A stretch of DNA of 64,000 nucleotides from a virus (taxonomy: Duplodnaviria > Caudoviricetes): the IMG/VR virus record IMGVR_UViG_3300032038_000076, positions 845-64,844 of that record; one strand, written 5' to 3'. The stretch's first letter is position 1; each line of letters starts with the position of its first letter. The position numbers were made by a program, and so were the translations under genes. Below the pieces are notes generated by a model. The model had not been told where the DNA came from. It was given only the letters and a program-made list of their open reading frames with translations, and did no database searches. Positions 3,001-42,634 of the stretch are shown piece by piece.

Positions 3001-6000
3001 TAGCTACTATGAAATAGGAATTAGCTGTTTTACAGCAAATGGCTATTGAAGAAGCAAATAATAAAAAAATTGCAGAGGCTCAAAATCAAAAAGATTAGGC
3101 AATTAATCAAATACATAATTATGATGATGTTCAAAATGCTATACAAGGTGGAGAAACTATTACTGAAGATCAGTTTAATATGCTTCCAGATGCAGTAAAG
3201 GCTTATTTTGAAAATACTGGAGATTTTACATATGCAATAAAAGATGGTATGGAAGCTGTTGCTTCAGCAGTAGTAGACAGCGCTCGTCAATATGCCTTTG
3301 AACCAGCTCTGGCTACAATAGGAGATTAGCTTTATAAATTTGATCAATTAAAGGCTAATAATTTTGATTATTAGAATGTTCAAAAACAAAGTGACACTGA
3401 TCAATATGGTCAAATAAATAAAGATAATCTTGAATTAAAATTACAATATTTAGATGCTCTCGGTTTAGAAGATCAAAAAGTTCAAGATATTATTAATAAA
3501 GGCCGTGAGATGATTGAAAATGGCAAGGCTGATCATTAGGTTATACAAGATATTAATAAATTATATAATGAGCAAGGCGATCAAACTGAACAATTAACAG
3601 AAAGGCATAAAGAATTAAGTGAAATCCAATTAGGAATGCTAGAAGCTCAATAGGCATTAAATTAGCAAAATTCTTTTACTCTTGATTCAGATATTAAAGT
3701 TGATTAGTTAGAAGATCTTACTGAATATTTAATGGATTTTGCTAAATAGCTTGAAGATATTCCAGATTACTTAGAAGAAAACGAAGAAGCTGCGAGAGAT
3801 TATGCTCAATCTATTTTAAGATTTGATGATGCAATTAAAGATACTGTAAAAAATTATGATAAATGGTCTAAAGCTTTAGATAGTGGAAGTATTCAAGAGC
3901 AAGCTGAAGCAGTCGCCGAATTAAAAGATACTTATGCTGATTTATTAGACATTAGTGAAGAAAGTCTTACTCCAGAGTTTTTATCTGATCCACAAAATTT
4001 AGAAAATTTAAGAGCGGTTACTGAAGGAGCTGAAAATGCAGAGGAAGCATACCTTGCTTTACAAATGGCTGCGGCAGACGCTATTTTAATGGACGTAGAT
4101 ATGGATGCTTCCGGTTTTTATAATGAATTGGATGCATTAACTACTCAATATTTAGGTCAATCAATTGGTGAATTAACAGCAGATGCTAATTTAAATGATG
4201 ATCAGTTTTTAGCAGCATTAAGTAATTTATTATCTCAACTTGGTATTGGTGCGACTCAGGCTCGAGAGCTAATGAAAAATTTTGGTATGAATGTCAAAAT
4301 TAAAGAAGCTTAGCCAAAAACCCAACAAGTCTCAACGTCCGCACAATATTGGGTGCCTGCAACTTATGAAGTAGAACCTATGGATGTTAGTGGCTAGGAA
4401 AAACAAGGAACTTATTATGCTTTAAAAAAGGTTAGAGATGGTTATTGGGTTCCTAGAACTGAAACTCATACTGAATTAGTTGCACCTGGTGCTGGTGCGA
4501 TTTAGGTAGAAAATGCAGGGGTAACTGCTGGTGGTGATGTTAAATATGAAAACGCCACAAATGGTGGCGGTTCTGCCGGTGCAGCTCGTCGTGCTCCGTC
4601 TGGAGGTGGCGGAGGAGGCCGCGGTGGCGGAGGAGGCCGCGGTGGCGGAGGAGGAAAAAAAGGAGGCGGCGGAAAAGGCAAAAAAGGCAGCGGTTCTTCT
4701 AAAGAAAAAGAAAAATAGAAAGAAAAATAGAAAAAAGAAAAACATGAAGATTAGGTTGATATTTATCATGACGTAAATAAAGAACTTAGTAATATAGAAC
4801 GAGCTTTAGGACGCCTTCAAAAGAAACAGGATAAATTATGGGGTAAGCAATTACTTAATAATTTAAATAAACAATCCGCCTTACTTGAACAACATAAACA
4901 AAAGCTTCAAGAAAAACTTGCTTTACAGCAAAAAGACCTTGCTAATAAACGTAAAGATCTTGAATTACTTGGTGCTACATTTGATGAATATGGTAATATT
5001 TCTAACTATGTTGAACTTGTTAGTAAGAAACAATAGATCTTAAATAAATTAATTGATAAATATAATAAACTTGTTGAAAAATATAATAAAGCAACAAGTG
5101 AAAAAAAGAAAAAAGATCTTGAAGAACGTATTTAGAAGTTTGAAAAAGAAATTAAAGATGCTGAAAAATAGCTTGACGACTTAGAAGATAAGGTTAAAGA
5201 CTATGATTCTCTTCAAGAAGATATGGCAGATGTTCAAGATCAAATTGAAGATGATATTCAACAACAAATTTAGATCAATATAAAGAAGTTTAGAATGTCC
5301 ATTGAGATTCGTCTTGAGATGGGCTAGGCTGAACGTGATTGGAATAAATTTGTGCGAGAAGTTATGCATCATACCGATGTTATTAAAGATTCTCCATTCG
5401 ATAAAATTTTCCAAGATGCTAAACAGCAATTAGATGATGTAATGTCTTACTTTGATGTTCATGGTGCGGGAAGCACTTTAACTGCACTTGTAAATCAAAT
5501 GTATGCAACTAAAGATCAGATTGAACAAATTAATGCTACTGGGTGGTCTAGCATTTATGGTGATAATAATGGAACTGCTATGTAGGATCTTCAAAGTGAT
5601 CTTGATACATTAATGTCTCAAATGTAGGATATTGAATCCTTATTGGATAATATTGATCAAGCCTATCTTGATACTATAGATGATGTGCAGGATAATTTTG
5701 ATAAGCAAATAGATGACTATGAATATGTTACAGATTTAATTGAACATGATATTGATTTATTAGAACTTTTATATGGTGAAAAGAATTATAATGCTATGAA
5801 TGAGTATTATACAACCTTAGAAAGAAATCAAACTAATCAATTAGATGCATTGCGGAAGCAGGCAGAGTTCTGGAAAAAGCAATGGTAGGGAGCTGCCGCG
5901 GCAGGAGATTCTGAAGCTGCAAAGAAATTTGAAGAAAATTATAGATAGGCACTTAATAATTTAAATTCTGTTATTGAAGAAGCTGCACAAACCATTCAAA

Positions 6001-7806: not shown

Positions 7807-7820
7807 GTTAAGGAGAAAAA

Positions 7821-7982
7821 ATGGATAGGAATGAAAAAAAGATGATTGAATATAAATGGAAAACTGGAACATATGGATTAAATGATATGATTAAATTAGT
7901 AAAAAAAGGAATTTTAAATTAGGCAGAATTTTTTTATATTACAAGATATAATTTTCAGGGAGTAAATAATAAGCAAGGTTAA
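7821..7982 (+). CDS. XkdX-like small tail-associated protein (53 aa, 1 TAG)
   Basis: AAGGAG RBS; MDRNEKKMIEYKWKTGTYGLNDMIKLVKKGILN*AEFFYITRY resembles the XkdX family. Confidence 0.6.
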
Positions 7983-31861: not shown

Positions 31862-31890
31862 AAGAGGGTATGCATAACGCATACCCTCTT
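31862..31890 (-). terminator. Terminator after DUF2828
   Basis: aagagggtatgc-ataac-gcataccctctt hairpin followed by a U-tract on the minus strand. Confidence 0.8.
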
Positions 31891-31893
31891 AAA

Positions 31894-33414
31894 TCATGCG
31901 ATCACCGCTTTGTAACGGTCAGACATCAGCTTCTCTAACATGAGATCATATCCGTCCTTGCCGCTCAAAATAGTTTCAATCATGACTGGCGAAAAACCGC
32001 TGACATAACTAAATCCTTCACCAATGGCTGGAATATTATTATGTCTAGCATTAAGATTCCAGAAGATTACCTGTGGTAAATCATAACCTTCAGCTTTCCA
32101 CTGTTTCTTAATTTTTTCAAGATCAGAATTAACTTCATCAATAGAATCAACTGTCTTTCCGTAACTCCAACCCCATGTATTACGCTTCTGATGGGTATCA
32201 AAAGTTACGCAGCCATCAAATTCCATATCACTGAAAATATAAATTCTACTAGGCATATCTTCAACTTTGACATGTCTATTTTTTGCAGTTTTAAGTAACA
32301 TATCAAATACTGCCTGCAAATTAGTATTCATACCCCAATTTGCACTTTCACAACGATGGAATTTGTCAACAATATCAACGCCTTCAAATTTTACTAACTC
32401 AGGTCTTTCAGAAAAGGTAATAAAATGATTAGCAAAAGGTCCGTGTGATTTGTCTGCAATATATGCGCCCATAGAAACTGCGGCTTCCATTGGAGTTCCC
32501 GTCATAGAACCAGACACATCAATTATTGCAATACCATTCTCTTTTCTACCATTGTAAAAATCTTTCAAATTATCCCAATATTTCTGAAGCATTAATCGTG
32601 TAGGATCATCAATAGAAACCAAATGATTATTCATTCGAAAAGCTTTATGAGCAACATCATGCGGATAAAGAACTTCTGCATTTACTTTTGTATCTTTATT
32701 CTTTGCAAATTCTTCATATTTCTTAGCTAAGATGTCGCGGCGAGCAAAGGCGTTTCGATATATAATACCAGCCCTAGAAGGAATTTTATCAAATTCGATT
32801 TTATCCCACTCACCTGCGCTCATAAGACGTTCAAGAACATTGATGCGTTCACGTAAAATAGAAAGAGTCTTACGATAATTACGACTCGTCATCCCAAGAT
32901 ATTTAGCGAGTTTGCGACCAAGTCGCTTAGTTTCAGAATTAGACGCATTCTGTGAAGGCATCCATTTAGCTAATAGTGAAGGTGTTTTACATTCAAGATC
33001 AAGAGCAAGCTGATGTTTAATAATATTAAAGGCTGCGGATTCGGCACCAGTCCCCTCCGTCGAATAAATAAGATCATCCCAACGACCATACTCGCTTACA
33101 TTGTTAAGATTCTTAATAGCAATCGTTGGATAATTTCTGCATAACCAGCGAAATGCGACTCTAAAGAATCGCCGCTCTCCCTGCCCTCCGCGTACATCTC
33201 TGAGATAGAACAGGCATTTCATAGCAAGATCTGGATTTTCTTCAAAAGCATTTTTAAACAACAGTATAACATCTTCATCTGATCTCTGCCGATATGCGCC
33301 GCCAACCGCAAACATATCAAGTACTTTAGACTCGGTCGTTTTTCTGGTCACGCCGCCATTTTCTGTGTAAGTAAGATTATCATTTTTAATCATCTGATTA
33401 AGAAAAGTATTCAT
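31894..33414 (-). CDS. DUF2828 family protein (TROVE-like plus vWA, Ro60-like; 506 aa, no TAG)
   Basis: TENGG, FYLRDVRGGQGER, YGRWDDL, AKWMP, IDVSGSM (MIDAS), IFSDMEFD, FWNL. Confidence 0.85.
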   Translation of the reverse strand: MNTFLNQMIKNDNLTYTENGGVTRKTTESKVLDMFAVGGAYRQRSDEDVILLFKNAFEENPDLAMKCLFYLRDVRGGQGERRFFRVAFRWLCRNYPTIAIKNLNNVSEYGRWDDLIYSTEGTGAESAAFNIIKHQLALDLECKTPSLLAKWMPSQNASNSETKRLGRKLAKYLGMTSRNYRKTLSILRERINVLERLMSAGEWDKIEFDKIPSRAGIIYRNAFARRDILAKKYEEFAKNKDTKVNAEVLYPHDVAHKAFRMNNHLVSIDDPTRLMLQKYWDNLKDFYNGRKENGIAIIDVSGSMTGTPMEAAVSMGAYIADKSHGPFANHFITFSERPELVKFEGVDIVDKFHRCESANWGMNTNLQAVFDMLLKTAKNRHVKVEDMPSRIYIFSDMEFDGCVTFDTHQKRNTWGWSYGKTVDSIDEVNSDLEKIKKQWKAEGYDLPQVIFWNLNARHNNIPAIGEGFSYVSGFSPVMIETILSGKDGYDLMLEKLMSDRYKAVIA

Positions 33415-33438
33415 ATCCTTTTATCTCCTTTACTTTTG

Positions 33439-33810
33439 TCAAAGTAATTCGTCATTACAATATTTTTCAATAAAACCTTCAGGATCGTCATAAAGCCATT
33501 TTTCAAGAGTATCTATATCATACTCTTTTATAATATTAGACTTTATTTTCCAAATTTCATAAGCAACATTTTCATTATAAATATCATAACGAAGTTCTTC
33601 AATATCATCTTCGCTCATATTTTCATCCGTAAAAGCTTCAACATCATTTTCTAATTCATCAATAATAAAGCTATAAAAATTCATAACATCTAAAGAAAGT
33701 TCTCTTGCTTCTTCAATGGCTTCTTCTTCTGTCCCTGTACTGATAGCCCAATCTTCTATCCCATGATATCCACCATATTTTTCTTCAAAAGCATGAATTA
33801 CATACCACAT
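33439..33810 (-). CDS. Acidic hypothetical protein (123 aa)
   Basis: Open ORF with AAGGAG RBS. Confidence 0.7.
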   Translation of the reverse strand: MWYVIHAFEEKYGGYHGIEDWAISTGTEEEAIEEARELSLDVMNFYSFIIDELENDVEAFTDENMSEDDIEELRYDIYNENVAYEIWKIKSNIIKEYDIDTLEKWLYDDPEGFIEKYCNDELL

Positions 33811-33834
33811 TATATGAGTCTCCTTTTTTAAATA

Positions 33835-33989
33835 TATATGGGATAAGGATTTGCACCTTATATGCTAATTCAATTAGGTTCTGTTCGGAACACATTAGCA
33901 ATCCATCCTCGTCTTTACGATTTCCTCACAGTATCATTATTTACTGTTACTACCTACATTGCTGCGTCTACCTTTTCCGCCACCCATAT
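33835..33989 (-). ncRNA. Expanded tRNA-like RNA (155 nt) with inserts in the anticodon and variable arms
   Basis: Acceptor ATATGGG/CCCATAT+A; D region GGCGGAAAAGGTAGACGC; AGCAAT/ATTGCT stem enclosing about 57 nt; T arm ATAAGG-TGCAAAT-CCTTAT. Confidence 0.7.
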
Positions 33990-34028
33990 ATTATTTATTT
34001 ATTATAAATATATTATAACAAAAATTTT

Positions 34029-34376
34029 TTATAAAGTCAATTTATCTACTTTTTTCCAACGACCATTACCATTTTCTTCATATCTGACCCAAATACCAGG
34101 AGAAGTAATAAAATCATACCATTCACACCAGCCGCAATACTCAGCTAACCAAATGAAATCTTTAAATTCTTTTTCATCATGAAGAATGACTTTTTCACTA
34201 TAATTATAATATTTTTCGTTTAAGAGATCATCTAAATCAAATCCTAATGTTATATTATCTTTTGTGTAGATAAGAACATTTTCTAAATTTAAATGTTCCT
34301 TTTTTTCTTCATAAAAAAGACAATCATATTCATTATCAAAAATAGTTCCATCATCTGCTTCATAAAGAATATTCAT
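34029..34376 (-). CDS. Hypothetical protein (115 aa)
   Basis: AAGGAG RBS; true start MNILYEADDG inside the track ORF. Confidence 0.65.
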   Translation of the reverse strand: MNILYEADDGTIFDNEYDCLFYEEKKEHLNLENVLIYTKDNITLGFDLDDLLNEKYYNYSEKVILHDEKEFKDFIWLAEYCGWCEWYDFITSPGIWVRYEENGNGRWKKVDKLTL

Positions 34377-34386
34377 ATTATTCTCC

Positions 34387-34791
34387 TTACCAATCACTGT
34401 ATACATCCAATATTCCATGCGGGCAGCCGGTGTCATATACCTTCCCGCGATACCCAAAAGGTGTTTCAACCACCGTATATGGCGGTAAATCAACCGATGC
34501 TAAAATTATATATCCATCCGCATCGCATACAAAACCATCTGAATTAACATGTCTACCTTCAACAGGAGTTGAAGTCTAGCCAGGAAACATACTTAGAGTA
34601 TAATATGTCCAAGTCCAGCCGCCCCAATCTATCATTCCTTGATATTGAAATTCTGCTATGCTTATTTCTCTTGGCAGACTTACTTCATCATTGATTATAT
34701 GCTAATAATTTTTAACATTCTAATTATAACAATAGTTAAGATGAATGGGGAATATAATAAAGAAGCATGCTAATAATATTAATAGATTCAT
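34387..34791 (-). CDS. Membrane/secreted protein with 3D-domain-like C-terminus (134 aa, 3 TAG)
   Basis: GGAGG RBS; hydrophobic N-terminus; ETPFGYRGKVYDTGC...ILDVY. Confidence 0.55.
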
Positions 34792-34804
34792 ATTTAAACC
34801 TCCA

Positions 34805-35572
34805 TTATATATCTTTTGAATCTTTTAGATTATAATGGCGGGTGACCGTAGAAATAAATATCGAGTCTTTTCCAGATGGAAGATTAGATCCTAAAAGCAT
34901 TGTACCATCTTTTTTAAAGGTAATACCTTCAAGCTCATATTTACCTGCGGTAGCTTTTTTACTTAAATAAATAACATCAGGTTCTGTTGCGTATATGCCG
35001 CTTTTTAATATTACATTTGATTGATAATCTTGATTTGTGAAAACCACATAAATTGATTTGCTATTTGAATTATAGGCCATACCTTGAGATATTGTATATC
35101 CTTGATTAGCTTTTGTATTATTCACAGTCCAGCTATTTAATTCAATTAATCTTGAGCCTTCGCGCTGTACGATAGCAATCTTATATGTGGCACCCGCTTC
35201 ACATAAAACAAAAAACTTATTATTCTTATAATGTGCTATTGCATTAATATGTAAATTACAATCGAGTCTAGTAAATTCCCAAGTCTATGTAGATATTAAA
35301 CCACAAAAATTACTACATGGAGCAATATATAACTAATTATTGTAATAAGCCATATCATTTCCATGTAGTAAACAGTCTTTATATTTATGAGTTATATGTT
35401 TTGTTTTGGTATAATTCTAATAAACAGAAATTGCGGAGACTCGATTGTTACGTTTAGTTTTTATTGTATATAGTTTGTTATCAACTATCTACAAACTACC
35501 AAAATTTGTGCATTGACCAGAATTTTTAATTTGAATTCCTTTTTGCTACTAAAGTTTTATAGTCATAATCAT
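34805..35572 (-). CDS. Beta-propeller-like protein (255 aa, multiple TAG)
   Basis: HGNDMAY, SQGMAY and ELEGITF blade-like motifs; extends track ORF 34805 through TAGs. Confidence 0.55.
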
Positions 35573-35592
35573 CACTCCTTTTTTATTATGAC

Positions 35593-35666
35593 CAGCCCAG
35601 GCTGGATTCGAACCAGCGAAAATGCAGGAGTCAAAGTCCTGTGCCTTACCACTTGGCGACTGGGCT
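35593..35666 (-). tRNA. trnQ: tRNA-Gln(UUG)
   Basis: Cloverleaf, loop CT-TTG-AC, A1-U72, G73. Confidence 0.9.
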
Positions 35667-35674
35667 ATATAAAA

Positions 35675-35787
35675 CAAGACACATAGTTATGCATTGATCT
35701 TCCAATTGATCGACATTTCTATCAAAGAAATGATGGGATTCGAACCCACAATATCTTGCGATATAGCATTTTGCTGAATGTGTCTTT
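35675..35787 (-). ncRNA. CAGCAA-stem RNA E1: circularly permuted tRNA mimic (YrlA-like architecture)
   Basis: Terminal stem aagacacat/atgtgtctt; order T arm, loop-closed 7-bp acceptor-like stem, D-like arm. Confidence 0.7.
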
Positions 35788-35789
35788 AA

Positions 35790-35860
35790 TCGAAATAGTG
35801 CGACTCGAACGCCTCCTCTTCATCCCAAATGAAGTGTGCTACCATTACACTACTATCTCG
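35790..35860 (-). tRNA. trnP: tRNA-Pro(UGG), atypical T stem
   Basis: CTTCA-TT TGG GA-TGAAG anticodon arm; C1-G72, A73. Confidence 0.75.
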
Positions 35861-35864
35861 TTAA

Positions 35865-35956
35865 CAAGGGACTCTATAATGTTTTAATATATATATTAAT
35901 TAAACTTCAAAAATTTTAATTAAATCATTCTGTAAAATATTGCTGTTTGTCCCTTT
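35865..35956 (-). ncRNA. CAGCAA-stem RNA E2
   Basis: aagggac-aaacagcaa...gtccctt; begins just after a sigmaA promoter. Confidence 0.6.
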
Positions 35957-35994
35957 ATCTTATAAATATATTATATCAAAATTTTTTTAAAAAA

Positions 35995-36162
35995 TCAAGT
36001 ATTAGCTTTATTATCATTAGAAATATGAACTTCAAAAGTAGAAGGTAAATTTAAACCTTTTATATTAATTATTTGTCCATAATCATATTGATATAATTTT
36101 CTTGTGATGGACTATCTTCCGCCATTACTAAAATTGGCAGTAATTATATTAATTCCCATCAT
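35995..36162 (-). pseudogene. Truncated BppU-like (baseplate upper protein) N-terminal fragment (55 aa)
   Basis: TRKLYQYDYGQIINIKGLNLPSTFEVHISN, then TGA. Confidence 0.5.
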
Positions 36163-36246
36163 TTTTCCTTCCTTATTTTTATATTAAAAAATGAATTGAA
36201 TTTATTAATTAATTCAATCCATTACATTTTTATATTTAATTAAGAC

Positions 36247-36789
36247 TTAGGGCCATTCTCCAAGTGGCTTCCCTAACTTACGTTCTACATCTGTACAATA
36301 GCAAACACAACCACCTGTATAATGCATATCTTTAAAAACTTCTGCGGCAATGTCCTGATAAAGGGTACTAACAACTCCATGAGGATCATTTAAATTATCA
36401 TTGAAGAACTGAACCACGCAATTTTTAAATACAACATATGTAAAATCAATCCACTGATATCCCTCTTGAGCTGGAGCCACACAATATGCAAATGCAGGAT
36501 TCTTTTCAAAAGCAACTTCAAATAATTCTTTTGCAGATGTAAAAGCTCTATTACTAAATGGACCGTCGATATTAATTGTTAATATAACATTGCCAAACAT
36601 TTTTGTTGGCGGAAGAAGAATTGCAAGAGCAGTTGCTTTATCTCCATTATTTGTTGCAAGAGTAATTGAAGGTTCAGAAGCACTCCAATTAATATTACAA
36701 GCAATTTGCGGGTCTCCGTCAAAAAGTGCCTGAATCTAGTTCATATAAGTAATCCAAGGCGGCGCAAGTTTAAGTCTTACGTTATTCAT
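36247..36789 (-). CDS. Conserved phage hypothetical protein (180 aa, 1 TAG)
   Basis: AAGGAG RBS; LAPPWITYMN*IQALFDGDP extends track ORF 36247. Confidence 0.75.
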
Positions 36790-37010
36790 TTATTTATCTC
36801 CTTTTTACATGTAAAAATAAAATAATATCATTAAAAAAGCCAGATGAGGATATTCTACTTATAGCTATTAGCTTCACTACTTTCCAATCCACCATTATCA
36901 TCTCTCTGGCAGAGACTGTTTACTTATCGTGGTTAACTCACGCCTGTTGACTAGATAATACTATTTCAAATATTACCATACCTAGGTTACTATATGTCAA
37001 CTTAGGATAA

Positions 37011-37094
37011 TGCGGCTGGCGGGATTTGAACCCGCATGGTATCTCTACCGAGGGATTTTAAGTCCCTTGCGCCTACCTGTTTCGCCACAGCCGC
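37011..37094 (-). tRNA. trnL: tRNA-Leu(UAA)
   Basis: AGGGA-CT TAA AA-TCCCT, long variable arm. Confidence 0.92.
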
Positions 37095-37100
37095 AAATAA

Positions 37101-37173
37101 TACTCGATGTTGGACTTGAACCAACGACTTCGACTTTGTAAGAATCGCATTCTCCCAGCTGAATTAATCGAGC
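37101..37173 (-). tRNA. trnV: tRNA-Val(UAC)
   Basis: CGATT-CT TAC AA-AGTCG. Confidence 0.85.
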
Positions 37174-37309
37174 CTATAGGTAGTTTCCATCTCTGCTCGC
37201 TGAAACTACCAAACCTGAGGATCTTCCATTGTGTACACGGAATATAATTAGTTTAATGTCATAATTTATTAATGGTTGTGTCAAAACTAATAAAGATGCA
37301 ACCAGAAAA

Positions 37310-37382
37310 TGGAGTCAGAGAGAATCGAACTCTCGGCCTCATCCTTGCAAAGGATGTGCTCTCCCAATTGAGCTATGACCTC
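37310..37382 (-). tRNA. trnA: tRNA-Ala(UGC)
   Basis: CATCC-TT TGC AA-GGATG; G3.U70. Confidence 0.88.
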
Positions 37383-37454
37383 TTATGAAACTCTCCAAGC
37401 GTCTCAAATCCTTAATCTATTAATTATAAGTCAATTGCGCCACAGCCGCAAATT

Positions 37455-37566
37455 CAAGTCACATTTTTAAGTCTGGATTCGAACCAGAAATGTCTATTTT
37501 TCAGATAGATGCCTTAACCGTTTGGCTACTCTCGGAAGGACCGAGTAAAATTGCTGTATGTGACTT
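37455..37566 (-). ncRNA. CAGCAA-stem RNA E3 carrying a tRNA-Phe(GAA)-like core
   Basis: aagtcacat-acagcaa...atgtgactt enclosing D arm, TCTAT-CT GAA AA-ATAGA and a T arm. Confidence 0.7.
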
Positions 37567-37579
37567 ATTTATATTTTTA

Positions 37580-37709
37580 CAAGACCATAACGAGGTTTTT
37601 AGTTGAGTAATAGAGTTACAAAATTTCCTCGTCCACTAAATCTACTCCATCAGGTGTTAGCCGACCTTTCTATTCCAACTGTCGTATGTGATTGGCTGGA
37701 ATGGTCTTT
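37580..37709 (-). ncRNA. CAGCAA-stem RNA E3b (variant ccagccaa)
   Basis: aagaccat-tccagccaa...atggtcttg. Confidence 0.5.
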
Positions 37710-37718
37710 ATTTATTTA

Positions 37719-37789
37719 AGTAACTGAAGGGATTTGAACCCTCACCATAACTTTGGAAAAGTTATATGCTACCATTACACTACAATTAC
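37719..37789 (-). tRNA. trnG: tRNA-Gly(UCC)
   Basis: TAACT-TT TCC AA-AGTTA; U73. Confidence 0.9.
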
Positions 37790-37906
37790 ACGCGTACCGC
37801 CGCAGTGATTAACGAGATGCTTCGCGGTTTTCCTGGGTTTCATTCTCGAAGAAAGAGATGGGTGATCAAATCCTTATAAGCGATCTCTTACTTAGTCCTC
37901 GCTTCG

Positions 37907-38431
37907 TGGGCCGTGATGGAGTTGCACCACCCGAGTCAATTGACAACGCATTTATTCCTGGTTCGAGAATTGAACTCGATATTGAAAAGTTTGAAATCCT
38001 TGATTATTTTTTGTTGGTTCAAAACGTAAAGTAATTTGTTTCCTATTACCAGCTTCAATAATATCTTTTACTGGAATATTCCACATATTTAATTCGTTAT
38101 CCACACAAAATAAATAATCAAGCTCAAGATGATTGAAAATATTATCATATTCTGTACCTTTTGTTCCGCCACTTGATCTTAAGCTAATAGTTTTATCTTC
38201 AGTAGCAGTAGCTTTACATTGAACAGTATAAAATTTATTATCTTTTTCAATCACCAAATCATACCATTGAGTGTCATTCATTGGAATGGAAATAGTATAT
38301 TTATTAATTGTAAAATAATTAATAGCCATACTTAATCCTAATCTTCCCAACTATTTACGGTTAATTTTACTCATTTTCAAATCACCTATCCAGACCAGTG
38401 CGCCCCGCTACTACTTACGGTATAACGACCC
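37907..38431 (-). tRNA. trnY: Split tRNA, probably Tyr(GUA): 5' exon 38396-38431, 3' exon 37907-37954, 441-nt insertion
   Basis: GGGTCGT/ACGGCCC+A acceptor, GCGCA/TGCGT anticodon stem, long variable arm; loop CTG|TAAA. Confidence 0.75.
37952..38374 (-). mobile_element. PD-(D/E)XK (PDDEXK_5/I-Ssp6803I-like) homing-type endonuclease ORF inside the tRNA (140 aa, 1 TAG at codon 8)
   Basis: SIPMNDTQWYDLVIEKD...VQCKAT...LDYLFCV; ATG at 38374. Confidence 0.8.
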
Positions 38432-38440
38432 AAATAAAAA

Positions 38441-38524
38441 CAAGATACATTCAAAGGGTTTGAACCTTTTTAATTATTTTAGCCTAAATAATTTTTATCC
38501 TCCGAAATTGCTGTATGTATCTTT
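38441..38524 (-). ncRNA. CAGCAA-stem RNA E4 with degenerate tRNA-like core
   Basis: aagatacat-acagcaa...atgtatctt; internal hairpin and T arm AAAGG-TTCAAAC-CCTTT. Confidence 0.65.
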
Positions 38525-38525
38525 A

Positions 38526-38596
38526 AGCCCCCACCCCGACTTGAACGGGGATTGAGTGATTACAAGTCACTTCGCCTACCATTAGCGGATAAGGGC
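38526..38596 (-). tRNA. trnT: tRNA-Thr(UGU)
   Basis: AGTGA-CT TGT AA-TCACT. Confidence 0.9.
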
Positions 38597-38599
38597 AAC

Positions 38600-39250
38600 A
38601 TCTGGTTTGTTTAGGTGCTTGCCACCCAATTGAAAGCATTCCACTTTCATGCGAAATCAACTATTTCGTAAAGTGTGTGCAAAGTTTTTACGTTGCCAGA
38701 CCAACGATAGATCTTTTTGCGATCTATATACGCGGCTACATGTCCACTGCACCAGTACATTACATTGGTTCTCTGAATTTAATCAGTATGTTATGATTTT
38801 ACACTATACAGTACCATGGCTCCCGCACATAACTACTCACGAGTATAGTAGTTTGACAGCTTTTACCTCTTGTCTTTTTTACACACTCGCAGAGGAATCG
38901 TTCATTAAGGACATGAACTCATTAACGACCGCTATCACCGCAAGCACGGAGATATTCTTCTTGAATATCTAAGTCACTCTCTTTGTTTTAAGAACAAAAG
39001 TAGAAAAGAAACTTTTATTAAAATATATTTTTGTGCGTGATATATTTTAATAGACTTCGTCGAGTGTGCAGTCATAAATCGGTTTCAACCCAGCATTTAC
39101 TCAATCACACGCATTTCAAATGGATTCCACAACTTTTAATTATCTCATCCTCGCGCTTCATATCGGATAGATTGTGAGTTAGTCCTCACAGTGTTCCATT
39201 ATATGAACTTTATTTTCTTCTCGGCTTTTAATGCTTGCCTATCGACGAAA
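38600..39250 (-). ncRNA. Candidate large structured ncRNA (about 650 nt)
   Basis: No credible RBS-led ORF; lies between two tRNAs; many hairpins. Confidence 0.5.
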
Positions 39251-39324
39251 TTGCGGCGGGTGGGATTTGAACCCACGATTTTCTCCTTATGAGGGAGATG
39301 AGATAACCACTTCTCTACCCCGCA
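39251..39324 (-). tRNA. trnM: tRNA-Met(CAU), initiator-like body with bulged acceptor
   Basis: TCTCC-CT CAT AA-GGAGA; TGCGGGG 5' end. Confidence 0.75.
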
Positions 39325-39803
39325 TAATAATGCTTTTTATTTTAATCCGAAAGGAGCATTAACCAAAGAACAAACCTAAGTAGTTTTTTGTTAAGGGAAA
39401 ATAAGAAGTAAAACTATTGGTCTTCCGTCAAATCATAACTTCTTATCTAGGAAATAAAACATATTACTATGTTTCTTCATATTTTTTATTTCCTAACCTT
39501 TATAAATATATTATATAATATTTTTTTAAAAAAATCAAAAATAAGGATTTTTATCGGATAAACCCTTAAAACCATCACTAGCTTGTTGGCTTATATTAGC
39601 ACAATGGACTGTACCTCCATTTCTAAAAATTTCATCAAGCTAATGGAGAGTTGACAATTTCATGCATCTCCTGATAAATTCTACAAAGATTTATCTTCCA
39701 TGAGATTTTCCATAAAGAGAGTTGTCTTCCTACTTCTGATTTTTTCTATACCGCCGCGAAGTCCAAGCGGTAGAACCAGTTCTTAGTGACCTCGTCGGTC
39801 AAA

Positions 39804-39877
39804 TCACCCGACTGGGATTCGAACCCAGGATCCACTGATTTAGAGTCAGTTATGTTAGACCGCTCCACCATCGGGCG
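39804..39877 (-). tRNA. Amber suppressor tRNA (anticodon CUA)
   Basis: CGCCCGA TG GTGG AGCGGTCTA ACAT A ACTGA-CT CTA AA-TCAGT GGATC CTGGG TTCGAAT CCCAG TCGGGTG A. Confidence 0.93.
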
Positions 39878-39879
39878 AT

Positions 39880-40410
39880 GGGAACAGGTTTAAGGTCTCT
39901 GTCCCGACCGCTCTCTTCTCAATCAAGTTTCACATGAGCAATGTAAACGGCAGTTTTATATCTTGTCGGATAGAGAGTTTTTTGATATAGTCGTAACTTT
40001 ATCAACCTATACAGCTCACAAGGTATAATGTGGGTAAATGTTCTCTCTCTGCCTGTCCCACCTTGTTGACCACATCTTGCTTTCAATCCATTGATAAATT
40101 CAGTCTATCGTTTATCAATCCCACTATTTTTACAAGTAGATGTATAGCCGAGAGTTTCAACAGCTCTTATCCTCAGGCCCAGCGCTTCCTTATCCTGTGT
40201 TCTATTAAAGTCACAATGCTTTAATCTGTGGTCAAAATAAGATTTATATGAATATAGCTTTGTCCATTTCTTAGGCTCCCTACTCACTATAGCCTAAATT
40301 CCACTGGTCATGACTCCAGCTCCTAGGTAGTCTGCTATGGTCTCTCGCTTCCGACCGCCGCACGTGTGGTGGACTCTCTGATTGTTTATGTACACTATTA
40401 AAATCAGTTA
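39880..40410 (-). ncRNA. Candidate large structured ncRNA (about 530 nt) immediately 5' of the suppressor tRNA
   Basis: Hairpin-dense, no RBS-led ORF. Confidence 0.45.
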
Positions 40411-40430
40411 CCATTGCTATATATTATATA

Positions 40431-40595
40431 TCAAAATGCAAATTCATTATCTCTATCCAGCCGCTCAAAATAAACGACTCCAAAACGATCTTCAAGGAAC
40501 TTAACTTCTGAATAGCTTCTTACAAAAGTTATATGCTTTTTGTTGAAATCATCTTTATAAGTTACCATATAAATAACTACTCTGGTGTTTTCCAT
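40431..40595 (-). CDS. Small protein (54 aa) MENTRVVIYMVTYKDD...
   Basis: Own promoter and AAGGAGG RBS; below the track cut-off. Confidence 0.7.
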   Translation of the reverse strand: MENTRVVIYMVTYKDDFNKKHITFVRSYSEVKFLEDRFGVVYFERLDRDNEFAF

Positions 40596-40679
40596 AGCAA
40601 CGCCTCCTTAAAGATGTTGTTTATCACTTTTGTTATATATATTATAACAAAAATTTTATTAAAAATCAATAAATGATTT

Positions 40680-40986
40680 TTAATCTGGTAGTTTAGGTTT
40701 ACCTCCGCGACGAACTCTACCAAACTGGAGGAAAATTGGCTTATCCTGGTACGCATTACAAGCGTGATGAGTACTGATATAAATGGGTTTACTTTGTCTC
40801 CTTATATACCGTTTGTCACAAAAGCCACATACCATACGCCTCCAGGCGGGCTGAATAGAAACAATCAAAGTCCTGAATATTTGGTTATGTCAGTGGTAGT
40901 TTAACCCTAATCCATACTAACGGTGATTTTAATGTCTTATCTGACAAACACACTTATAATGGCTCAGGCGGGATACCCTCACCAAA
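40680..40986 (-). ncRNA. Candidate structured RNA 3' of tRNA-Asn
   Basis: Shares 5' motif with 41062-41332; 3' pseudoknot potential. Confidence 0.45.
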
Positions 40987-41060
40987 CTGCCAGAGAGAGG
41001 CTTGAACTCTCGACCTTCGGTTTAACAGACCGACGCTACCACCAACTGAGCTATCTGGCA
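40987..41060 (-). tRNA. trnN: tRNA-Asn(GUU)
   Basis: TCGGT-CT GTT AA-ACCGA; U1-A72, G73. Confidence 0.9.
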
Positions 41061-41061
41061 T

Positions 41062-41332
41062 TAATGTAGATGCTTGCCACAGCTTCAACCTTGTTCAGGT
41101 GTCTACATCACCTTACTCCAACATATCTCTTGGATGAAAGAACCTCTTTTCCTATCCCGAGGTAAAGGTATCTATAGATTATGGCTTATAGACTATGTGC
41201 CAGACCGTATTATAACTCTCAATCGGACGAACGACTGTATCCTCGACAGCTCAGATTTATATTGGCTGAGATAAATCAACTCAATACAATAAATACACTT
41301 ATGATGGTTCAGGCGGAACATCCTAAACCAAA
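41062..41332 (-). ncRNA. Candidate structured RNA between tRNA-like gene and tRNA-Asn
   Basis: Shared 5' motif; several hairpins. Confidence 0.45.
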
Positions 41333-41403
41333 TTGACAAAAAAGGATTCGAACCTTTATTTCTCCTTTTCACGGGAGCGTCTTCTCCTTTAGACGATTTG
41401 CCA
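41333..41403 (-). tRNA. Degenerate tRNA, anticodon ambiguous (GTG or GAA)
   Basis: Good acceptor, D and T arms; anticodon arm CTCC-CGTGAAAA-GGAG non-canonical. Confidence 0.55.
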
Positions 41404-41518
41404 AAACTCCATTTCTAGCGCGCCTAATGGAGCCAAGAAGATGCGCATCTTCTCTAAGATTTTTTTTGTTAATTTTAGGATAAAATCTCTAAAAATTCCT
41501 TTTATTGTTTTATAAAAA

Positions 41519-41656
41519 CAAGACAACAAGTTCCTTTTCTAAAACCAATATGGTGACCTACCAAATTAAAACCACTAAACTTCGATACTTTTGGAGCTTT
41601 TTTCATCAAAAAGCATATTTTCCTTATTTACTTTGTTTTGCTGTTCTGTTGTCTTT
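41519..41656 (-). ncRNA. CAGCAA-stem RNA E5
   Basis: aagacaaca-gaacagcaa...gttgtcttg; begins right after a sigmaA promoter. Confidence 0.6.
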
Positions 41657-41894
41657 ATCTTTATATAAATATTATATCATAAATTTTTTAAAATTTCAAA
41701 TTTCTTGATCATCCTCGCAAGGAGCGGCGCTTAGCTCGACCCTTACGAGAACAATTATAACCTCTTGAAATTTCTTTTTTATTATGTATATATTATAACA
41801 AAATTTTTTAAAAAAATCAATGAAAAAATCTCTTTTAGAGGTCTATTTTTATTTAAAAATAAATAAGATTACTTAGATAACATTGTCCAAAAAA

Positions 41895-42539
41895 TTATTT
41901 TCTCTCCCATTGATGTTTTGCTTTTGATTGCTCTTTCCACGATCTTTGAACGCATCTTGAACGATCATCCCACCAATGAGGTATTCCATGTCTGCTTCCT
42001 CTATTAAATTCTTTATAATCTGGATTTGCAAACATTCGTATAATTCTTGCGGTGCCTGGTCCAGAGTGAGAAGAGCCGCCGCGCCATTTATGAACAAAAG
42101 GAACAGGATCTTTTCTGTATTCAAACATAGTTTTTCTTTTGCTTAAATATTCATATTTTTTCTTATTATGAATTTTAAACTTATATCTATACTTCCAATG
42201 AATATTTTCCCAATAACATTTCTTAAGCGATGACCCATCTGCTTTCCATTTTTTATAAAGATCAAATGCTTTTTCTTTAAAATCACGAGCATTAATAATT
42301 CTATTATAGTTGTCATAAAACATATAACGTCTATAATAGCAATCTCCCTGTTTAAACAGGTCTTTAATATCACAAGTGCATTGCTCAAGAAAAGAATTGT
42401 AAGTTATACCCCAGAAATCATCATGAAACCATCTGGCAATAAAATTCACAATTTCATCTTCTGAATAAAAATAATCTGTGATTTCATCATATTCTGCATC
42501 ATAAAGTTTATAAAAATATTCATTAGAGATTTTATACAT
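41895..42539 (-). CDS. Hypothetical protein (214 aa) with basic, Trp-rich C-terminus
   Basis: Open ORF, RBS AAGGAG. Confidence 0.75.
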   Translation of the reverse strand: MYKISNEYFYKLYDAEYDEITDYFYSEDEIVNFIARWFHDDFWGITYNSFLEQCTCDIKDLFKQGDCYYRRYMFYDNYNRIINARDFKEKAFDLYKKWKADGSSLKKCYWENIHWKYRYKFKIHNKKKYEYLSKRKTMFEYRKDPVPFVHKWRGGSSHSGPGTARIIRMFANPDYKEFNRGSRHGIPHWWDDRSRCVQRSWKEQSKAKHQWERK

Positions 42540-42560
42540 AATAGATCTCCTTTCCCCGAA

Positions 42561-42634
42561 TGGATCATATAGGACTTGAACCTATGACCTTGGAGTTATG
42601 AGCTCCCTGCTCTCACCAACTGAGCTAATGATCC
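42561..42634 (-). tRNA. trnI: tRNA-Ile2(CAU, lysidine type)
   Basis: GGATCAT/ATGATCC+A body resembling Firmicutes Ile2; CT CAT AA loop. Confidence 0.7.

Follow-up and report, generated by a model that had tools for sequence, protein, structure and literature searches.

The locus and its Ro60-like protein

The stretch of DNA considered here (the window: 64,000 nucleotides, positions 845 to 64,844 of the IMG/VR virus record IMGVR_UViG_3300032038_000076) is nearly all of a 64.8-kb viral contig with a GC content of about 30%. Two of its features are the subject of this report, namely a gene for a DUF2828 protein and, 2.3-8.2 kb upstream on the same strand, an island of tRNA genes interleaved with small RNAs that have in common a closing stem and an adjoining motif, together referred to here as the handle (Table 1). 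Relatives in IMG/VR are phages of 130-197 kb. TAG is read as a sense codon in this phage genome, since the long reading frames appear only when TAG is read through (an open reading frame (ORF) of 2586 aa holds 69 TAGs and one of 2210 aa holds 19) and a suppressor tRNA(CUA) was found by ARAGORN at 39803-39878, inside the tRNA island. The use of TAG is segregated along the window: the large ORFs at 1-31 kb carry between 4 and 69 each, no TAG is present in the DUF2828 gene, in orf123 or in most of the ORFs that lie at 33-48 kb and 53-64 kb, and TAG is the terminal stop of none of the listed ORFs.

The DUF2828 gene starts with ATG, stops with TGA and has no in-frame TAG. The initial annotation had described it as a 506-aa DUF2828 gene with a vWA MIDAS motif (metal-ion-dependent adhesion site), free of TAG and lying about 2 kb from the RNA island on the same strand, and this description is confirmed, the distance from the nearest of the RNAs (E1) to the gene being 2.26 kb. 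The protein was matched by hmmscan to the Pfam families DUF7788, which corresponds to the vWA part (6.9e-49), and DUF2828 (6.1e-30), with a weak match to VWA_2, and it also matches PHROG 850, 'RNA-binding protein' (E 2.6e-123). Close homologs number in the thousands, there being 6705 cluster representatives at E <= 0.001, and in an 81-sequence alignment the MIDAS residues (D299-x-S301-x-S303, T364 and D396) are invariant. DUF2828 genes are present in 702 of 50,697 phage records, among them those of model phages such as Felix O1 types, Listeria P100/A511 types and mycobacteriophages.

An AlphaFold2 model computed from the same alignment has a predicted local distance difference test score (pLDDT) of 92.7 and a predicted template modelling score (pTM) of 0.91. 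In a Foldseek search of the PDB the top 12 entries were all Ro60, Deinococcus Rsr or the Ro60 of Thermus phage phiLo, aligned over their full length, with E values to Ro60-type structures between 4.7e-7 and 2e-4. VIA-align superimposed residues 9-486 of the model on residues 10-536 of Xenopus Ro60 (1yvr) with Z 20.6 and a root-mean-square deviation of 4.0 over 415 residues, and the ten best entries in the VIA ranking were likewise all Ro60/Rsr, the first unrelated one having Z 9.8 and matching the vWA part only. Because the highest-ranking entries of both programs are Ro60-type proteins and VIA places every Ro60 entry above the first unrelated one, the modelled protein is taken to be a structural homolog of Ro60 over its full length, with a HEAT-repeat ring and a vWA domain. 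The comparison with Ro60/Rsr folds that had been proposed at the outset thus has a clear outcome, in that the predicted ring and vWA match both domains. The identity to solved Ro60 structures is 11-16% and a plain sequence search against PDB chains gave no match, so that the kinship is barely visible to sequence methods and the informative comparison is that of the fold alone. Homologs in Mycobacterium phages carry the annotation 'Ro-like RNA binding protein', and a survey of jumbo phages mentions ROT/TROVE proteins that have tRNA-like partners (PMC7824862); the Ro kinship of DUF2828 proteins is therefore already reflected in existing annotation.

Table 1. Features of the DUF2828 locus and tRNA island (window coordinates)
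Feature	Coordinates	Strand	Evidence
Gene for predicted Ro60-like ring protein, 506 aa (DUF2828 N-terminal helical ring, DUF7788/vWA with MIDAS)	31894..33414	-	Pfam, PHROG, AlphaFold2, Foldseek, VIA
Intrinsic terminator closing the DUF2828 unit	31862..31890	-	13-bp stem with 6 GC pairs, then T run; 4 nt past stop codon
orf123, small co-transcribed ORF, 123 aa, 0 TAG	33439..33810	-	ORF list
Structured tRNA-like leader RNA, promoter to first ORF; not a handle RNA	33835..33989	-	Sequence and fold
Promoter of the leader-orf123-DUF2828 unit	34012..34040	-	TTGACT-17-TATAAT with TG extension; 11/12 consensus positions
tRNA island interleaved with handle RNAs; 12 tRNAs including tRNA(CUA)	35592..42634	-	ARAGORN, Rfam tRNA
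E1, circularly permuted tRNA mimic (T-arm, acceptor-like stem-loop, D-arm), YrlA layout	35676..35786	-	R1 104.7 bits; Rfam YrlA 32.1 bits
E2, AU-rich payload; begins just downstream of a promoter	35866..35955	-	Handle scan; R1 28.4 bits
E3, tRNA core (D-arm, anticodon arm with GAA, T-arm) without free acceptor end	37455..37567	-	R1 27.7 bits; Rfam tRNA
E6, 9-bp closing stem AAAGACCAU/AUGGUCUUG, variant loop CAGCCAA; weakest member	37575..37714	-	R1 19.3 bits, E 0.11, filters off
E4, short; degenerate T-loop-like hairpin; begins 2 nt past tRNA-Thr	38442..38523	-	Handle scan; R1 34.8 bits
E5, 10-bp closing stem; begins just downstream of a promoter	41520..41655	-	Handle scan; R1 18.4 bits
Promoter cassette copies	35960-36015, 39500-39555, 40631-40686, 41661-41716, 41782-41837	-	Repeat

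Handle RNAs and their linkage to the gene

The bare hexamer CAGCAA is not enriched in the window (36 observed vs 32 expected), and the signal of the handle lies in the motif together with its stem context. Each of five minus-strand copies in the island is found 1-3 nt past a 5' strand of 7-10 bp that begins with AAG, and the complement of that strand, ending in CUUG, follows 82-136 nt downstream. The handle consists of a closing stem, AAAGAC...GUCUUG, the two strands of which covary, and of ACAGCAA, which is single-stranded and conserved; in all members the place of the YrlA motif is occupied by (A/U)CAGCAA. A covariance model, R1, built from ten permuted-tRNA relatives, detected four of the five handles in the window at E <= 0.002 and E5 at 18 bits, and added a sixth element, E6. 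The five RNAs that the initial annotation had listed as E1 to E5 are thus all handle RNAs, and the region which it delimited ends, at 41656, with the 5' end of E5, but their number has to be raised to six.

What the handle encloses, here called the payload, differs from one element to the next. That of E1, whose minimum free energy (MFE) fold has a z-score of -2.8, lies in an element positioned 3 nt past tRNA-Pro and 8 nt before tRNA-Gln. E3 was not called by ARAGORN; its Rfam tRNA score of 46.9 bits extends over model positions 6-65 only, and its fold has an energy of -29.6 kcal/mol (z -4.0). The payloads of E2, E4, E5 and E6 are hairpins, and for E2, E4 and E5, which have weak z-scores in single-sequence folding, support is provided by the comparative data given below. 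The 5' ends of E1, E4 and E6 lie no more than about 10 nt from the 3' end of the upstream tRNA, the 3' ends of E1 and E2 are 5-8 nt ahead of the next tRNA (tRNA-Pro begins 5 nt past E2), and E2 and E5 are preceded by promoters, TTGATT-17-TATAAT at 35998-35970 and TTGAAA-17-TATAAT at 41699-41671 respectively. A 56-nt promoter cassette (TTGATT, a T/A-rich 17-nt spacer and TATAAT) occurs in five copies on the minus strand, two of which drive handle RNAs directly. At gathering thresholds Rfam finds only tRNAs in the window, at E <= 5 the sole relevant match is a sub-threshold one of YrlA to E1, and at neither level does it hold a family for the handle.

Comparative data for the RNA family come from several sets of sequences. 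The ten permuted-tRNA members have a consensus fold in which 16 of 23 pairs show compensatory changes and all four helices covary. In an alignment of 135 distinct sequences to the model, pairing in the closing helix is 99.5%, with double changes at 7/7 pairs, and it falls to about 40% when the 3' partner is slid along, the alignment having been fitted to R1, which somewhat favours the pairing score. A motif-plus-stem scan of 69 IMG/VR loci with DUF2828 homologs yielded about 110 elements, nearly all of them upstream of the gene and on its strand, and their stems vary in sequence with pairing kept.

Matches to R1 adjoin DUF2828 genes in four further kinds of phage. Four handles are present in Bacillus phage MrDarsey, the payload of one of them (56.6 bits) being a permuted tRNA; in Mycobacterium phage DirkDirk a single handle, which gives 39.8 bits with Rfam YrlA, lies downstream of the gene at a distance of about 100 nt; in a Staphylococcus Sextaecvirus there are three in tandem, the first 14 nt after the gene; and the tRNA array next to the gene of a Felix O1-type phage includes one. 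In a Listeria Pecentumvirus three tandem handles lie directly upstream of the gene with the stems GGAAUC, GAGAGC and GGAAGC, ACAGCAA following each stem strand and each handle closing with ...CUGU. When the whole genomes of five phage records were searched with R1, the top match of each record was less than 4 kb from the gene and on the gene strand.

A blind scan of IMG/VR with the pattern AAAGACACNTACAGCAAA produced 72 matches in 70 loci. The closing stem is present in 54 of these matches (52 loci), and 48 of the 52 loci are on contigs with a DUF2828 gene, the contigs of the four handle loci without the gene being only 4-66% complete. None of the 18 chance matches, which lack the closing stem (best stem 3-6 bp), is accompanied by a DUF2828 gene; nine of them are in loci as long as the contig itself, and for the remaining nine the search was extended over the entire contig. 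Where gene and handle fall within the same locus, all 32 handles are on the gene strand, 106-2286 nt away, and the proteins are 24-52% identical to that of the window; the distance in other phages overall is 14-2286 nt. A count around 75 DUF2828 genes, out to 4 kb, gave 172 handles on the gene strand vs 29 on the opposite one, at least one handle being present within this distance at 64 of the 75 loci, and handle RNAs were not found in complete genomes lacking a DUF2828 gene. The co-occurrence proposed in the initial annotation is borne out: in phage lineages that are far apart, RNAs with the CAGCAA handle accompany DUF2828 genes on the same strand, at distances of up to about 2.3 kb.

Known systems and other features of the island

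TROVE-type Ro60 genes with Y RNAs on the same strand within 4 kb have been described from 254 bacteria and 22 phages, the Y RNAs having a GNCGAAN0-1G motif and tRNA-like modules (Chen et al. 2014, PMC4201824). The modelled DUF2828 protein appears to share the ring-plus-vWA fold of bacterial and phage Ro60 (Rsr, TROVE and vWA; PMC4201824), and in both cases the genes for partner RNAs, putative ones here, are a few kb off on the same strand. As in YrlA, YrlB and Yrn1, a stem is formed from the RNA's 5' and 3' ends with a conserved motif on its 5' side. The T- and D-arms recall YrlA and Yrn1, the order in E1 being that of YrlA and the order in E3 that of Yrn1, and there are several RNAs in one locus, those without a tRNA module recalling YrlB. 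There are also differences: the protein belongs to Pfam DUF2828/DUF7788 and not to TROVE, the motif is ACAGCAA and not GNCGAAN0-1G, and the elements occur in up to six copies here, and more in relatives, embedded in a phage tRNA array. Rfam YrlA (RF02553) aligns with E1 over its full length at 32.1 bits (E 7e-4), well below the gathering cut-off of 69 bits, and has no match at E <= 5 to the other five handles. By alignment and MFE fold, E1 alone of the six has the permuted YrlA order (T-arm, acceptor-like stem-loop, D-arm) inside its terminal stem. A placement of the YrlA type (<4 kb, same strand) is found for E1 and E2, 2.3-2.5 kb upstream of the gene, E3-E6 being 4.0-8.2 kb upstream. With ACAGCAA in place of GNCGAA and so low a YrlA score, the suggestion made earlier that the family is distinct from YrlA is upheld.

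Another close case is the Ro60 of Thermus phage phiLo, which binds the phage-encoded RNAs Yrl1 and Yrl2 and assembles with host PNPase (PMC12135203). It too is a phage-encoded Ro60-type ring with Y-like RNAs upstream of its gene (PMC12135203; PDB 9KOP, 9L5Y), and its structures align with the DUF2828 model at Z 14-15 over about 400 residues. However, it is a recognisable TROVE protein whose RNAs carry a CGAA motif, and its RNA binding and PNPase recruitment are experimental, whereas the pairing of protein and RNA is proposed here from sequence and predicted structure. No paper linking DUF2828 to an RNA partner was found, and in the library searched none describes the handle.

A further likeness is to the Class I RNAs of Dictyostelium (Aspegren 2004; Kjellin 2021, PMC7919456), which start with AAG, end in CUGU and vary in their interior. 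They have a 6-bp covarying terminal stem, the 5' strand of which is directly followed by an 11-nt motif, CCUUACAGCAA, and the published search pattern for them is GTTGRCCTTACAGCAA...GTCAACTG (PMC5054030). They were reported to be unique to Dictyostelia, with Rnp1A, a protein with an RNA recognition motif (RRM), as a direct binder (PMC7919456). The phage handles read AAAGACACAUACAGCAA...GUGUCUUGU, and the copies in the Listeria phage end in CUGU; when set against the published pattern and description they too start with AAG, have a terminal stem that covaries, agree at 7-8 of the 11 positions of the motif (UACAGCAA) and end in CU(U)GU. Class I RNAs differ in being eukaryotic, 42-65 nt long, with a DUSE promoter and without a tRNA-like payload. 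In sequence terms the phage handle appears closely to resemble that of the Class I RNAs, common descent not being established. Close DUF2828 relatives in Dictyostelium or other eukaryotes were looked for through the ESM Atlas and with a giant-virus copy as the seed of a homolog search; all proteins retrieved were viral or metagenomic, and no organism was named for them.

The DUF2828 gene is the last in a unit with its own promoter and terminator (Table 1). The 155-nt leader of this unit includes large insertions and GACGCAGCAAU, and has a fold of -38.1 kcal/mol (z -2.5) that is closed by an acceptor-like stem and contains a T-arm; it is without a closing stem of the handle type and R1 gives no match to it. 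For orf123 there was no PHROG match and Pfam yielded just a weak sub-threshold one to DUF3284; it is not conserved beside DUF2828 in relatives, many of which have a tRNA-Cys gene directly upstream instead. PHROG and Pfam scans of this locus revealed no RNA ligase, kinase, PNPase or other repair enzyme among the neighbouring ORFs.

A number of other features were noted within the island and in relatives. Four minus-strand blocks of 270-650 nt between tRNAs (38600-39250, 39330-39800, 40690-40986 and 41062-41331) are poor in ORFs and above the genome in GC, and have no Rfam match at E <= 5. The block after tRNA-Asn and that after an odd tRNA have a common 40-nt start, UUGGU..CCGCCUGA.CCAU.AUAAGUGU, those before tRNA-Asn and tRNA-Thr have in common GGUGGCAAGCAYCUA, and alignment of all four revealed no common family; they could be undescribed structured RNAs. 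The minus-strand tRNA at 41332-41404 (Rfam tRNA 46.2 bits) was given a two-base 'anticodon' (ga) by ARAGORN, has an abnormal anticodon loop and may be another tRNA mimic. The island also holds, at 37952-38350 on the minus strand, an ORF for a PD-(D/E)XK_5 endonuclease (Pfam 2.4e-13, PHROG 5018), possibly a homing-type nuclease. In three relatives (L004 852-924 / 937-1012, L037 4240-4315 / 4320-4396 and L046 7689-7799 / 7810-7886) a handle ends 5-13 nt before tRNA(CUA), an arrangement that is absent from the window and may be due to chance in a dense array. Another relative has, besides tRNA(CUA), a tRNA with the anticodon UUA, which reads TAA (L008 6561-6635), and yet another has a tmRNA gene within its island (L009 8425-8702). 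In the tRNA array of Listeria phage LMLPA3, 1 kb upstream of the DUF2828 gene, there is a match to ROOL RNA of 89 bits, the cut-off being 99 (L072 2470-3021), with a gene for an RtcB-type RNA ligase 1.3 kb downstream of it. In DirkDirk the DUF2828 'Ro-like' gene has, 0.9 kb upstream and on its own strand, a gene for a band-7-like membrane protein (L070 3185-4081).

The proposed particle and competing explanations

The predicted fold, the RNA family with its covariation and the linkage of the two across lineages are observations from which any interpretation has to start. It is probable that the DUF2828 protein and the six handle RNAs form a divergent particle of the Ro60/Y-RNA type, in which the handle would dock on the ring and the payloads that resemble tRNA would serve as adaptors or decoys. 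The handle RNAs would be made either within polycistronic tRNA transcripts or directly from the strong promoters, and as the starts of E1, E4 and E6 and the ends of E1 and E2 are close to tRNA ends, their release would probably be carried out by the enzymes that trim the flanking tRNAs (RNase P and 3' processing nucleases). In each RNA the 5' and 3' ends pair as a closing stem of 7-10 bp beside the single-stranded ACAGCAA. The ring would probably dock on this invariant handle, which would take the place of the conserved helix and GNCGAA/CGAA motif of known Y RNAs. The variable payload, whether it is a tRNA mimic in permuted order, a tRNA core whose acceptor is blocked or no more than hairpins, would offer other factors a surface resembling tRNA, much as YrlA tethers PNPase to Rsr. 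Since the DUF2828 gene is free of TAG and has its own promoter and terminator, the protein could be made before amber suppression sets in, and this TAG-free expression, together with the placement of the RNAs among phage tRNAs that include the amber suppressor, points to an early role in tRNA handling.

Several observations weigh against such a particle. The TROVE domain (PF05731) was not matched in the DUF2828 protein by hmmscan at E <= 0.01, nor in four of its homologs, which are DUF2828/DUF7788 proteins, at E <= 1, and a profile search of the PDB reached TROVE chains only at E 1.7 and over the vWA part alone. The handle motif is unlike every described Ro-binding motif, and some of the 152 matches to R1 are tandem-tRNA artefacts, made up of the T-arm of one tRNA and the D-arm of the next, a risk of which searches for Y RNAs have been warned (PMC4201824). 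At this locus the gap of 2.3 kb between the gene and the RNAs holds other ORFs and the gene's own promoter, and gene and RNAs are therefore not one operon here. The scan found no handle at 11 of the 75 DUF2828 loci, some of which are cut short upstream, and the locus of a Vibrio Schizotequatrovirus has no clear handle within 4 kb of the gene. Finally, the linkage of gene and handle could reflect a shared module instead of direct contact.

This last point can be extended to an explanation in which the handle RNAs are real but are read by some other factor, be it a host or phage nuclease, leader-trailer processing of the RNase III type or an RRM protein, the DUF2828 gene being a mere neighbour in a mobile 'tRNA island' module. 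In the window and its close relatives the RNAs are indeed interleaved with tRNAs and not fused to the gene, which is transcribed from a promoter of its own up to its own terminator, and for the similar Class I RNAs of Dictyostelium direct binding has been proven for one protein alone, Rnp1A with its RRM (PMC7919456). However, handles remain beside the gene where there is no nearby tRNA array, as in the Staphylococcus phage (14 nt downstream), in the Mycobacterium phage DirkDirk (about 100 nt) and at L052 and L055 (no tRNAs in the locus), which argues against mere co-residence in tRNA islands. Moreover, the sequence of the handle is kept exactly while the neighbouring protein falls to 24% identity, which fits a conserved specific partner encoded alongside, and the explanation is considered unlikely.

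An improbable explanation is that the handles act mainly in cis, as autoregulatory leader sites, attenuators or punctuation for the processing of tRNA transcripts, and are not stable partners acting in trans. Tandem handles do occupy the 5' untranslated region directly upstream of the gene in the Listeria phage and at three other loci (L050, L053 and L054), U runs follow some of the handles, and all are flush with tRNA ends. Against this there are six copies spread over 6 kb in the window, elaborate payloads that covary as tRNA-like modules and, in other phages, handles downstream of the gene; terminator-like tails are confined to a minority of the elements, none of which was called as a terminator. 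Action in cis would in any case be compatible with binding by the DUF2828 protein. It is very improbable that the elements are not functional RNAs but miniature units of mobile DNA, ending in inverted repeats and spread through the island by PD-(D/E)XK or other homing endonucleases. They are multi-copy with inverted terminal sequences and the island has a PD-(D/E)XK_5 ORF, but the two arms of the stem covary and are not both conserved, there is a complete bias to the gene strand with ACAGCAA on one arm only, and from copy to copy the payloads are entirely different. Both mobile elements and terminators were rejected on the grounds of covariation, of the bias in strand and of the absence of terminator calls.

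Returning to the particle of the Ro60/Y-RNA type, a wider and rather speculative proposal is that DUF2828 rings and ACAGCAA-handle RNAs constitute an old, undescribed sister branch of such particles, common to phages of Firmicutes, Actinobacteria and Proteobacteria and to uncultured gut and rumen phages. The Dictyostelium Class I RNAs would then represent this branch in eukaryotes, their missing partner would be a protein of the DUF2828 type, and the phage considered here would display acceptor-blocked tRNA mimics early in order to manage or shield its tRNA pool.

Ro60/Y-RNA particles, a classic system of RNA surveillance, have been studied in animals, in a few bacteria and in a small number of phages that encode TROVE. 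Should the proposals made here be true, there would be a second and far more widespread phage branch, with an RNA handle of its own and interchangeable tRNA-like payloads, and culturable carriers exist that would ease direct experiments. The handle RNAs would be a new component of phage tRNA islands and would provide a testable link from tRNA mimicry to the conflict between phage and host over tRNAs, and a concrete protein partner would be suggested for the Dictyostelium Class I RNAs, the mechanism of which has been open since 2004.

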